NCBI RefSeq assembly: GCF_056746865.1
Contig: NZ_CM163382.1
DNA: 64,000 nt
Strand: one strand, 5' to 3'
How positions within the stretch are numbered: the first letter of the stretch is position 1; each line of letters opens with the position of its first letter. Under the pieces are notes generated by a model that saw only the letters and a list, made by a program, of their open reading frames with translations, ran no database searches and was not told the origin of the DNA. The translations under genes and the position numbers were made by a program. Positions 43,690 through 47,355 of this stretch are shown one piece after another.

Positions 43690-46059
43690 ATGGCAGTACA
43701 GATTTCAGGTGTGCTGAAAGATGGTGCGGGAAAACCAATACAGAACTGCACTATTCAACTGAAGGCAAAGCGTAACAGCACCACGGTACTGGTGAACACG
43801 GTGGCCTCTGAAAATCCGGATGAAGCCGGGCGTTACAGCATGGATGTTGAGTATGGCCAGTACAGCGTTATCCTGCTTGTTGAAGGTTTTCCGCCTTCAC
43901 ATGCCGGAACCATTACCGTCTATGAAGGTTCCAGACCAGGTACGCTGAATGATTTTCTCGGTGCCATGACGGAAGATGATGTCATGCCGGAAGCATTGCG
44001 TCGTTTTGAGGAAATGGTGGAAGAAGCGGCACGCAACGCCGAAGCCGCCTCTCAGAGCGCAGCGGCGGCAAAGAAATCCGAAACTGCAGCGGCATCATCG
44101 AAGAACGCGGCGAAAACCTCAGAAACGAATGCAGCTAATAGTGCACAGGCGGCAGCGACCTCAAAGACTGCATCGGCAAACTCCGCGACAGCAGCCAAAA
44201 AATCAGAAACCAACGCGAAAAACAGCGAGACAGCCGCAAAGACGAGCGAAACCAACGCAAAGTCCAGCCAGACGGCAGCGAAAACCAGCGAAACGAATGC
44301 CAAAGCCAGTGAAACTGCGGCAAAAAACAGCCAGGTTGCAGCAGCCCAAAGCGAGAGCGCGGCAGCCGGTTCTGCGACTTCAGCAGCTGGATCAGCAACT
44401 GCTGCGGCTAACAGCCAGAAAGCTGCGAAGACGAGTGAAACTAACGCAAAGTCCAGCCAGACGGCAGCGAAGACCAGCGAAACGAATGCCAAAGCCAGCG
44501 AAACTGCGGCGAAAAACAGCCAGGATGCAGCAGCCCAAAGCGAGAGTGCCGCAGCTGGTTCTGCAAGTGCGGCGGCTTCTTCTGCCACTGCATCAGCCAA
44601 CAGTCAAAAAGCAGCAAAAACCAGTGAAACCAACACAAAGGCGAGCGAGACTGCGGCGACTAACTCGGCGAAAGCATCCGCTGCAAGCCAGATGGCTGCA
44701 AAAGCAAGTGAAGACGCAGCCAGGGAGTACGCAAGCCAGGCAGCTGAGCCGTATAAACAAGTTTTGCAGCCGTTGCCTGATGTGTGGATACCGTTTAATG
44801 ACTCGATGGATATGATTACAGGATTTGGCCCGGGATATAAAAAAATAACAGTGCGCGATGATGTGGTCACTATACCATCCGACAAAATTGTCCCGTTTTC
44901 CCGCGCGAGTTCCGCGACCTATATCAATAAGTCCGGCGCTCTTACCATTGCAGAAATTAATGAGCCACGTTTTGAAAAAGAAGGGCTGTTAATTGAAGGG
45001 CAGAGAACAAATTACTTCACAAACTCAAACGCTCCGGAATTGTGGAATAAAAATCCAGGCCTGAAGATAAGCGAGACAAAAACCGATTCCAGGGGTTTTA
45101 AATATGCAACGTTTACCCCAGAAAAATATTTAGATAGTTCTGGCTCATATGGAATTATATCAGGGGCAGCAGCAAATAAGATAGCGGTAGTCAAAAATGA
45201 TGCAGTTACAATATCCTTTAGAGCAAAAGGGGATAATGTAAGATTTGCGGCTAGATTTGATAAAGGGGATTCGCCAGTTGCTGTAGCTGCCATTTTTATT
45301 GATAGCGCCACACTAGATACATTCACGTCTGGAGCAGATGCGTCTAATATTGCTGTGAAAAATGTTGTTCGTGACGGTGAGTGGGTTGCTGTAGAGGCTG
45401 TTTATAAAGTAACAGACGACTCTACATATATTAACGGCGCCATTCTGATGTCAAACAAACTGGGTGCTAATTTTGATAAGACTAGTTTTATGGATGTAAC
45501 CACCCCTCAAATAGAGCTAGGTTCTTGCTTATCATCATTTATTGTCACACCAGGTGTTCCTGCGACAAGGGCGAGTGATATGGTTATTTTTTCAACCAGA
45601 AATAACATAAGTTCTGTCCCTTTAAGCTGTCTTGTTGAAATACATAAAAATTGGGACTCTACGCCAAATCAGGCCCCACGAATTTTAACCACTATTGGCG
45701 TGGCGACTAATGATGAACAACTGGTATTGGCTTTCAGGACGCCTACAAGTCCGGATGTAGAACCTTTACCTTATGTTCAGTTTGGAGTGAGATCTGCATA
45801 TCTTAGTCCATCTGTGAAGGCCGGGCGCAAAATGATTGCTGGTTTTGTCTGTAATAGCTCGACTGAATTTCGTTGCTGTTGTAATGGTTACCTGTCACCT
45901 GTTCAGACTTCGTCATGGAAGAATACCGGAGCTGCACATGAAATACGTATTGGGGGAACTTCTGCTGGAGGAGAACGTCACTTGTTTGGTCACGTTCGTA
46001 ACCTGAGAATATGGCATAAAGAATTAACTGATGCGCAAATGGGGGAGAGTATTAAATGA
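43690..46059 (+). CDS. stf: side tail fibre protein (mosaic: lambda Stf-like N-terminus, repeat-rich shaft, unrelated AT-rich C-terminal domain)
   Basis: ATG at 43690 gives MAVQISGVLKDGAGKPIQNCTIQLKA... as in lambda Stf; internal tandem repeats; C-terminal part AT-rich. Confidence 0.85.
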   Translation: MAVQISGVLKDGAGKPIQNCTIQLKAKRNSTTVLVNTVASENPDEAGRYSMDVEYGQYSVILLVEGFPPSHAGTITVYEGSRPGTLNDFLGAMTEDDVMPEALRRFEEMVEEAARNAEAASQSAAAAKKSETAAASSKNAAKTSETNAANSAQAAATSKTASANSATAAKKSETNAKNSETAAKTSETNAKSSQTAAKTSETNAKASETAAKNSQVAAAQSESAAAGSATSAAGSATAAANSQKAAKTSETNAKSSQTAAKTSETNAKASETAAKNSQDAAAQSESAAAGSASAAASSATASANSQKAAKTSETNTKASETAATNSAKASAASQMAAKASEDAAREYASQAAEPYKQVLQPLPDVWIPFNDSMDMITGFGPGYKKITVRDDVVTIPSDKIVPFSRASSATYINKSGALTIAEINEPRFEKEGLLIEGQRTNYFTNSNAPELWNKNPGLKISETKTDSRGFKYATFTPEKYLDSSGSYGIISGAAANKIAVVKNDAVTISFRAKGDNVRFAARFDKGDSPVAVAAIFIDSATLDTFTSGADASNIAVKNVVRDGEWVAVEAVYKVTDDSTYINGAILMSNKLGANFDKTSFMDVTTPQIELGSCLSSFIVTPGVPATRASDMVIFSTRNNISSVPLSCLVEIHKNWDSTPNQAPRILTTIGVATNDEQLVLAFRTPTSPDVEPLPYVQFGVRSAYLSPSVKAGRKMIAGFVCNSSTEFRCCCNGYLSPVQTSSWKNTGAAHEIRIGGTSAGGERHLFGHVRNLRIWHKELTDAQMGESIK
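44236..44613 (+). repeat. tandem 189-bp (63-codon) repeat, two full copies plus a partial third, inside stf
   Basis: Protein repeat AKTSETNAKSSQTAAKTSETNAKASETAAKNSQ...ANSQKA occurs twice consecutively with few substitutions. Confidence 0.85.
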
Positions 46060-46337
46060 AAGATTTAACACTCAAATTTGCAGACAGGGCCGACTTTTCG
46101 GCCTTTATGGAGAGCATTGGCTATTATGATGACGAGTTGATGCAGGATGATATTCTTATTGACGTGATAGGTAACGTGTACAAAGAAACCGGAGAACTGA
46201 CTGAAGATGGCGAACCGGTATGTGTTAAGGAAGACGGATATTTTGTAAACGTGCGCATCATTAATGATGCAAAAAAATCGTCAATATTCGATGAATACGC
46301 GGTTGTTGTTGAACATCAACTTCGTGGCTGGATGTGA
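46056..46337 (+). CDS. hypothetical 93-aa protein coupled to stf
   Basis: ATGA start/stop overlap with stf; acidic small protein. Confidence 0.55.
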   Translation: MKDLTLKFADRADFSAFMESIGYYDDELMQDDILIDVIGNVYKETGELTEDGEPVCVKEDGYFVNVRIINDAKKSSIFDEYAVVVEHQLRGWM

Positions 46338-46346
46338 GGGAGACAA

Positions 46347-47051
46347 ATGGCTACATCGACAGTAATTCCGGGAGACATCACCACGCTGAAGGGAGATGTC
46401 AGTAAAGCGAAGGAAGATATTTCCTCAATTAACAGTAAAGTATCAACGCTTCAGACTGATATGACCAGTGCAAAGCAGGATATCAGCTCCAGATACACAA
46501 AAACTGAAGTTGATAATAAGCTGAAAAACAAAGTGGAAGTGAACGATCTGGAAAGTGGTCGTTATGGCGGAGATTTTTATCCACTGACAGGTCGTGAAGC
46601 GTTTTATTTATGGAATTTGGCCACGACTACAGCGGCGGCAAACCTTTATCTTAATCCTGACCCTGCAATTTCGTCTGTACTGCGGTCAACATCGTCTATC
46701 CGCTATAAGCATTCAGTAGAGACGATAGATTCAGAGCACGCCGATCTCATTTTCAGGATGCGCCCTGTATGGTACAGGTCACAATGCGAAAATGACAGGC
46801 GTGACTGGGGATTCTACGGATTGATTGCCGAGGAAGTAGGAGAAATTGCCCCTCAGTTTGTACACTGGCGATCAGCTAACGAAGATGATGCACGGGAAGC
46901 TATTTCCAGCAATGGCCTTGTTGCCGAAGGTGTAATGTACGAACGTCTGGTTGTTCCACTGATTCACCATATCCAGAAACTGACCGAAAGAGTTGATGAA
47001 CTTGAGTCAGAATTGAAGTTGTTATCAACTTCCCGAAGCGATATCGGATAA
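46347..47051 (+). CDS. coiled-coil protein with C-terminal S74-type intramolecular chaperone-like domain
   Basis: C-terminal SSIRYKHSVETI...GFYGLIAEEVGEIAPQFV...YERLVVPLIHHIQKL pattern resembles tail-spike autoproteolytic chaperone domains. Confidence 0.6.
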   Translation: MATSTVIPGDITTLKGDVSKAKEDISSINSKVSTLQTDMTSAKQDISSRYTKTEVDNKLKNKVEVNDLESGRYGGDFYPLTGREAFYLWNLATTTAAANLYLNPDPAISSVLRSTSSIRYKHSVETIDSEHADLIFRMRPVWYRSQCENDRRDWGFYGLIAEEVGEIAPQFVHWRSANEDDAREAISSNGLVAEGVMYERLVVPLIHHIQKLTERVDELESELKLLSTSRSDIG

Positions 47052-47061
47052 AGGAGGAGTA

Positions 47062-47355
47062 ATGGATATAACACCTTTTCTTCATGCGCTTTGTGCTGTG
47101 GCTGCGCAGGTACTGATTGGTCTTTTTACCGGAAACTGGGTTTACGGGGCGATAGCCGGTTGTACGTTCTTCATTGCGCGTGAACACACCCAGGCAGAAT
47201 ATCGCTGGATTGAAATGTTCGGGCATGGCAAGCGAATGAATATGCCGTGGTGGGGCGGTTTTGATTCGCGCGCATGGGATGTGGCAAGCCTGATGGATTT
47301 TGCTGTGCCGGTGGTGGCGTGTCTGCTGGTCTGGCTGTTGGTTAATCGTGGGTGA
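47062..47355 (+). CDS. small membrane protein (two predicted TM helices)
   Basis: 97-aa hydrophobic ORF with GGAG-like RBS. Confidence 0.5.
   Translation: MDITPFLHALCAVAAQVLIGLFTGNWVYGAIAGCTFFIAREHTQAEYRWIEMFGHGKRMNMPWWGGFDSRAWDVASLMDFAVPVVACLLVWLLVNRG

Follow-up and report, generated by a model that had tools for sequence, protein, structure and literature searches.

A three-gene cassette behind the side tail fibre gene of a lambdoid Escherichia coli prophage and the possible place of its short S74-type protein in the fibre

Gene content of the cassette and its setting

Analysis of a 64,000-nucleotide stretch of DNA (the window; NCBI RefSeq assembly GCF_056746865.1, contig NZ_CM163382.1) showed a lambdoid prophage at the DLP12 site of an Escherichia coli chromosome, in which the side tail fibre gene (stf) is followed by three small genes encoding proteins of 93, 234 and 97 amino acids (aa), referred to here as the cassette. 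The three open reading frames (ORFs) were exactly those described in an earlier sequence-only reading of the window, and all features are collected in Table 1. The 234-aa protein carries, at the C-terminus, a Peptidase_S74-family intramolecular chaperone (IMC) domain and was taken, with moderate confidence, to be the minimal distal subunit of a modular side/lateral fibre cassette, docking on the junction of Stf and the 93-aa protein.

The stop codon of stf and the start codon of the 93-aa gene are joined by an ATGA overlap (translational coupling), while a strong Shine-Dalgarno sequence precedes both the 234-aa gene (GGGAG) and the 97-aa gene (AGGAGG), which begin 9-10 nucleotides (nt) past the previous stop, the 97-aa gene 10 nt past the stop of the 234-aa gene. 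The 93-aa protein was acidic (isoelectric point 4.19; 21 Asp and Glu residues against 9 Lys and Arg), so that both properties ascribed to it in the sequence-only reading, acidity and coupling to stf, held. Ratios of nonsynonymous to synonymous substitution rates (dN/dS), computed across distinct alleles (22 for the 234-aa gene; gap-free tblastn extracts for the 97-aa gene), were 0.31, 0.16 and 0.19 for the 93-aa, 234-aa and 97-aa genes, respectively. This purifying selection showed that the three ORFs are real, maintained genes and not chance ORFs. Positions 46000-47400 of the window were 100% identical in many sequenced strains, including strain 118UI. PGAP labels the 234-aa product 'tail fiber domain-containing protein' and the 93-aa and 97-aa products 'hypothetical'.

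The sequence-only reading had placed the cassette where lambda has tfa, in agreement with what remains of the 3' end of a lambda-type tfa gene, interrupted by an internal TGA stop, directly downstream and immediately before appY. At the matching place of the identical locus in strain 118UI, PGAP annotated a 'tail fiber assembly protein' pseudogene. In K-12 DLP12, tfaX presumably likewise precedes appY. The remnant indicates that the fibre cassette took over from an stf-tfa pair, and the region is mosaic. A Tfa identity for the 93-aa, 234-aa and 97-aa proteins themselves was ruled out, as none gave a Tfa match in Pfam, NCBIfam or PHROGs, and a defence-system identity was also ruled out, as PADLOC returned nothing.

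Table 1. Features of the fibre locus in the window
Feature	Position	Strand	Basis or remark
J	40132-43629		Intact 1165-aa ORF, followed by stf
stf (791-aa Stf)	43684..46059	+	ORF list; proposed proximal fibre of the module
93-aa acidic protein gene (phrog_1361)	46056..46337	+	ORF list, PHROGs
234-aa short fibre protein gene	46347..47051	+	ORF list; S74 match
N-terminal motif MATSTVIPGDITTLKG of the 234-aa protein	46347..46394	+	Common to all third-position proteins; putative docking peptide
Peptidase_S74 / IMC domain, aa 116-234	46692..47048	+	Pfam, invariant dyad, fold matches
Predicted catalytic Ser116 codon	46692-46694	+	Read from sequence
Predicted catalytic Lys121 codon	46707-46709	+	Read from sequence
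97-aa small membrane protein gene (phrog_1443)	47062..47355	+	ORF list; last gene of the cassette
Lambda-type tfa 3' remnant with internal TGA stop	47375..47485	+	Translation; PGAP pseudogene in strain 118UI

The 234-aa protein, its slot and its fibre partners

The 234-aa protein's C-terminal part had been likened in the sequence-only reading to the S74-type chaperone of tail spikes, with a profile search proposed as the check. The search was positive: Pfam Peptidase_S74 (PF13884) matched aa 116-172 over positions 1-57 of the 58-position model (E=2.2e-5, 25.1 bits), and a profile of the 234-aa family matched the IMC-bearing S16 gp37 (6f45, E=1e-4) and the MyRF ICA domain (7dc3) in the PDB. A precomputed PF13884 match was also present in many homologues. 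The AlphaFold2 (AF2) model scored about 90 in pLDDT (predicted local distance difference test) over aa 120-234 and showed a long helix at the C-terminal end (aa 198-233), and Foldseek returned the MyRF ICA domain (7dc3, E=1.4e-5), the GA-1 IMC (3gud) and the endoNF IMC (3gw6) for it. Self-cleavage in the S74 IMC family is carried out by a Ser/Lys dyad at positions i and i+5, a spacing that is presumably also that of endoNF, T5 pb1 and MyRF. In the 234-aa family, Ser116 and Lys121 were invariant in both alignments (12 and 39 sequences), and the self-cleavage site is predicted just before Ser116.

The N-terminal coiled coil, also noticed earlier from the sequence, corresponded to a predicted helix at aa 10-47, followed by shorter helices at aa 52-60 and 65-69, and this part of the protein gave weak matches to trimeric coiled-coil families. 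The protein is laid out as a motif (aa 1-16), a helical or coiled-coil stalk, a short tip (aa 70-115) and the IMC (aa 116-234). It aligned as a whole to positions 1147-1384 of the 1385-position phrog_3299, which is the C-terminus of long fibres, and longer P2/Mu-like fibres end in the same tip and IMC module (aa ~50-234 of the 234-aa protein), which supports a distal-end role. The phrog_3299 alignment, together with the mosaic region and the tfa scar downstream, would also fit a recombination fossil, in which the ORF is the functionless leftover 3' end of a longer fibre gene. Such a split fibre had been among the options of the sequence-only reading. The start codon, the Shine-Dalgarno sequence and the exact 9-nt spacing are, however, kept in 48 loci, the N-terminus with its motif is conserved in virulent phages of other families, and dN/dS was 0.16 over the 22 distinct alleles, so that selection and synteny led to the rejection of the fossil explanation as hardly credible.

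The third position of the cassette is a slot with variable content. Third-position genes, when present, open with M[AV]T[SVK]T[VNI]IP.DI[TK].LK, and the remainder of the protein is variable. The motif opens the proteins of HannyBb (343 aa), KarlJaspers (225 aa), SECphi27 (235 aa), KarlBarth (98 aa) and KurtStettler (510 aa), as well as IrisVonRoten gp24 (574 aa), and the slot is filled by 234 aa in the window, 343-346 aa in HannyBb-type prophages and 98 plus 196 aa in KarlBarth. Between the 234-aa and 343-aa proteins, likeness is limited to aa 1-32, with 66% identity. A 24-aa motif query returned 63 phage records, and the motif was located 9-19 nt behind a gene of the 93-aa family in every record that could be cross-checked against the set of 93-aa homologues. 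One N-terminal peptide on otherwise unrelated proteins, in the same slot and behind the same fibre end and small protein, indicates an attachment module, and because of this signature of slot and motif the minimal distal subunit is the best reading of the 234-aa protein. The KurtStettler protein bas22_0024 (510 aa) combines the motif and a coiled coil with a Cys- and Pro-rich tail and has no obvious IMC, and its label 'putative lateral tail fiber chaperone' looks doubtful.

Stf consists of a lambda-type N-terminal attachment domain (Pfam phage_tail_N over aa 3-133, E=1.8e-67; aa 3-96 matching PDB 9e7m/9mgh 'tail fiber protein', E=1.5e-49), Ala-rich repeats and a C-terminal region of ~540 aa with a ConA/LamG-like lectin end. 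NCBIfam GTA_spike_fiber covers aa 436-630, and a weak Pfam Laminin_G_3 match at aa 723-785 agrees with the 'galectin-like domain' reported on IrisVonRoten gp22 (PMC11990801). The C-terminal ~540 aa shared 39-42% identity with the lateral fibres of KarlJaspers, SECphi27, IrisVonRoten (gp22), KarlBarth and KurtStettler, in alignments that begin at about aa 130-320, depending on the partner, and run to aa 790. The last ~35 residues, with the end RHLFGHxRNFRxWHKxLTD, were strongly conserved across these lateral fibres, and the homologous C-terminal region was present in Drexlerviridae, the T5-like IrisVonRoten, the Dhillonvirus KarlBarth and the Seuratvirus KurtStettler. No S74 or Tfa match was obtained for Stf in Pfam or NCBIfam. 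The Ala-rich SETNAK/TAAKT repeats (44000-44800 of the window) are internally duplicated and yield many long spurious ORFs on both strands (for example 43976-44815 on the plus strand and 44052-44600 on the minus strand), and weak PDB matches to Klebsiella phage depolymerase stalks map to them.

Homologues of the 93-aa protein were found directly downstream of the lateral fibre gene in 183 phage records from several families, always behind the homologous fibre C-terminal region, in lambdoid, T1-like, T5-like, Dhillonvirus and Seuratvirus phages. This constant association with the end of the fibre suggests that the 93-aa protein acts at the junction or in assembly, and it may be a junction/adaptor protein or a fibre-specific assembly factor. 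No match was found in Pfam, NCBIfam or PADLOC, and the AF2 model (pLDDT 88) showed a compact alpha/beta fold. Sequence matches to GAPDH entries of the PDB were at chance level and were dismissed. Queries with the protein (aa ~35-75) also gave 5-8 short repeated matches in giant proteins of 1800-2900 aa, which may share a beta-hairpin repeat with it.

The cassette was matched in 1912 of 5426 complete E. coli genomes, and in 722 of these the match spanned 80% or more of the cassette. Isolated lambdoid phages carry the trio as well, namely IdasGreatGrand (97% identical) and PhiR49_1 (95% identical). Stand-alone homologues of ~225-235 aa (55-59% identity) were found in ~45 virulent Drexlerviridae (T1-like), where they also come after a lateral fibre gene and a 92-aa gene. 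The gene for the short stand-alone form of the 234-aa protein is therefore stable and widespread; the sequence-only reading, which had called such a separate short S74 protein unusual, was right about the stand-alone form and wrong about its rarity. A census of 80 IMG/VR loci with a close 93-aa homologue showed a 234-type third gene in 48 and a 346-type in 25, with a gap of exactly 9 nt behind the 93-aa gene throughout and the 97-aa gene next after the third gene. A sister clade, made up of phage 21 and the Lambda_2E9 group, has the order stf-92-97 without a third gene. Across the IMG/VR loci, the window-type 93-aa protein was always paired with a third gene (234- or 346-type), whereas the 2E9-type 92-aa protein (51% identical to the 93-aa protein) never was, the 97-aa gene following it directly. 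This pattern suggests that the small protein and the presence of a distal subunit are co-adapted.

The optional presence of the third gene bears on another option of the sequence-only reading, a trans-acting chaperone, in which the 234-aa protein would stay outside the virion, lend its S74 domain to the folding of the Stf trimer and then be discarded. A chaperone would suit several facts: Stf has neither an IMC of its own nor a Tfa, the 234-aa protein has a very small passenger part and is highly conserved against a variable Stf, and its homologues bear the annotations 'putative lateral tail fiber chaperone' or 'chaperone of endosialidase'. However, homologous Stf C-terminal regions occur without a 234-type gene in the isolated phages 21, Lambda_2E9 and ev207, and the same slot and motif belong to obvious fibres of 343-574 aa with their own IMC. 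The dyad for cleavage in cis is invariant, and the known S74 IMCs act, to our knowledge, in cis. Because this type of fibre works without the gene, its slot-mates are clear fibres and the dyad is invariant, a trans-acting chaperone was considered distinctly unlikely. The short accessory fibre, the remaining option of the three, gave the best fit.

Under the favoured reading of a minimal distal subunit, Stf would be the proximal fibre, the 93-aa protein would be the fixed companion of its lectin-like C-terminal region, and the slot behind the 93-aa gene would accept exchangeable distal subunits, all opening with the ~16-residue motif. Three 234-aa chains would trimerise, nucleated in cis by the C-terminal S74 IMC, Ser116 and Lys121 would cut the chain before Ser116, and the 119-aa chaperone would depart. 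A trimer of ~115 residues per chain, made up of the putative docking motif, the coiled-coil stalk and the ~45-aa tip, would stay on the Stf/93-aa junction and act as a short distal or branch fibre, possibly with receptor binding. The trio is carried by viable isolated phages (IdasGreatGrand, PhiR49_1 and Drexlerviridae).

Several observations weigh against this reading. The mature part has no recognisable receptor-binding domain, S74 being the sole domain found in PHROGs, Pfam and NCBIfam, and the tip (aa 70-115) was modelled with low confidence (pLDDT 39-47 in the AF2 monomer model). The 234-aa protein was 94-97% identical across loci versus ~67% for Stf, which is unusual for a host-range determinant and leans slightly to a conserved target or a structural role. 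The fold of the 93-aa protein gave no informative structural neighbour, with only uncharacterised proteins in BFVD, and the BASEL annotators label the 234-aa homologues 'putative lateral tail fiber chaperone'. The missing receptor-binding domain and the conservation (55-59% between lambdoid and T1-like phages, 94-97% within E. coli prophages) would be in line with a structural cap or regulator, in which the cleaved ~115-aa trimer docks, binds no receptor and either stabilises the Stf/93-aa junction or modulates the exposure of the Stf lectin. A comparable idea, 'transient chaperone caps' on fibres, has been proposed elsewhere, as cited in PMC11990801. Against a cap, the tip and IMC module is the distal end of the longer P2/Mu-like fibres, and alternative alleles in the same slot have receptor-binding domains; a cap or regulator was judged rather unlikely.

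The 97-aa membrane protein

The 97-aa protein is hydrophobic at aa 3-39 and 73-95 around a polar loop, giving 2-3 predicted transmembrane segments, as expected from its earlier description as a membrane protein. No match to a known defence or exclusion family or domain was found in Pfam, NCBIfam or PADLOC. The family is ~60% identical across Escherichia, Salmonella, Citrobacter, Leclercia, Aeromonas and Comamonas, and homologues were found in Aeromonas, Leclercia, Enterobacter, Citrobacter, Salmonella and Comamonas prophages. Outside the close lambdoid relatives, the gene was located directly behind a receptor-binding gene or its assembly gene in 10 of 11 contexts, the sole exception being one metagenome contig. 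The upstream neighbours included S74-bearing P2-like fibres, pectate-lyase tailspikes, gpJ, a P22-like tailspike just before int (phage Gally), an stf-92 pair (PhiR41_1) and tfa (phiHAP-1). In this small sample the gene sits at a known hotspot of accessory genes, the phages carrying it are temperate (lambdoid, P22-like, P2/HP1-like and phiHAP-1) and of sipho-, myo- and podovirus types, and the gene was absent from the virulent versions of the module that were examined (such as those of Drexlerviridae and IrisVonRoten).

The position downstream of receptor-binding genes and the restriction to temperate phages make an exclusion or conversion function probable in kind, and the 97-aa protein is proposed, with low confidence, to be an inner-membrane accessory with an exclusion or surface conversion function. 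The sequence-only reading had suggested a cargo function such as exclusion, which is reasonable. The tight packing of the gene in the late operon and the lack of a promoter or terminator of its own count against such a role: a simple consensus scan of ~47000-47500 gave no convincing promoter or terminator and nothing above shuffled expectation.

Along the window, the order of genes is J, stf, the three small genes, the tfa scar, appY, ompT and envY. The gpJ of strain 118UI was flagged 'frameshifted' by PGAP, while J of the window is intact at 1165 aa.

Significance and comparison with known systems

Side and lateral fibres make the first host contact in many coliphages, and their parts are swapped in engineering the host range of phages or phage particles. 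A wider proposal, put forward tentatively, is that the 93-aa protein and the ~16-residue motif form a universal plug-and-socket by which distal receptor-binding subunits could be swapped among lambdoid, T1-like, T5-like, Dhillonvirus and Seuratvirus phages, with the lectin-tipped proximal fibre in common and the 234-aa protein as the minimal plug. In the same proposal, the 97-aa family would be a new inner-membrane factor tied to the receptor-binding genes of temperate phages with all three tail types, shielding lysogens or progeny against those proteins or related phages. Should the motif and the 93-aa protein really make up a shared docking joint, rules could be given for transferring distal binding modules between temperate and virulent phages, and hundreds of 'hypothetical' E. 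coli prophage genes would gain a function. Testing the 97-aa membrane family as a candidate for a new exclusion or conversion function would be cheap. In its present state, the result is an improvement in annotation and no surprise. The cassette is of ordinary frequency, and its biology is modestly interesting.

The lambda Stf-Tfa pair agrees with the window in its place in the genome and in the N-terminal attachment domain of Stf; in the window a tfa scar is left. The lambda fibre tip is lambda/T4 gp37-like, whereas the C-terminus of Stf in the window is lectin-like and the cassette has no Tfa match. The K1F endosialidase (3gw6), the GA-1 neck appendage (3gud), T5 pb1, S16 gp37 (6f45) and the MyRF ICA domain (7dc3) have the same domain family, fold and i/i+5 Ser/Lys dyad as the 234-aa protein. 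Each of their IMCs is preceded by a long spike or fibre that has an enzymatic or a binding domain, whereas the passenger of the 234-aa protein has only ~115 residues. The T5-like phage DT57C has branched fibres that comprise two proteins, LtfA together with LtfB (PMC4728585, PMC10713586), and offers the same concept of a second fibre protein attached via the first and not via the tail; unlike in the window cassette, no small intervening gene was reported in these two papers.

The nearest orthologues were the directly orthologous trios of the Drexlerviridae, such as KarlJaspers bas06_0035-0037 and SECphi27 gp79-81. Their fibre (651-664 aa) is 42% identical to Stf in the C-terminal region and differs in the N-terminus, their 92-aa protein is 53% identical to the 93-aa protein, and their 225-235-aa protein is 58% identical to the 234-aa protein, with the same motif, coiled coil, tip and IMC. 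These trios belong to virulent phages, have no 97-aa membrane protein and are annotated 'chaperone'. In the literature searched, only the BASEL papers and the DT57C work were found to bear on the lambdoid version, without a functional test, and no discussion of the shared motif or of the families of the 93-aa and 97-aa proteins was found; the Eligo preprint on Stf engineering does not mention the cassette genes.

The closest described system is the gp22-gp23-gp24 locus of IrisVonRoten (Bas32), in which gp24 is a T-shaped distal fibre with an IMC, attached to the proximal gp22 according to an AlphaFold-Multimer prediction and not by experiment (PMC11990801). Gene order and spacing are the same as in the window cassette, gp22 shares 39.5% identity with Stf over 744 aa, and gp23 (92 aa) is 38% identical to the 93-aa protein. 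The start of gp24, MVTKTVIPTDITKLKN, is the same motif as MATSTVIPGDITTLKG of the 234-aa protein, and an S74 IMC stands at its end. The two systems differ in that gp24 has 574 aa and two receptor-binding domains, whereas the window protein has 234 aa with a coiled coil and a ~45-aa tip only, and in that IrisVonRoten is virulent and without a 97-aa gene, whereas the window cassette lies in a temperate phage. On these sequence comparisons, the window cassette is best read as a probable minimal, temperate-phage version of the IrisVonRoten-type multi-subunit fibre.

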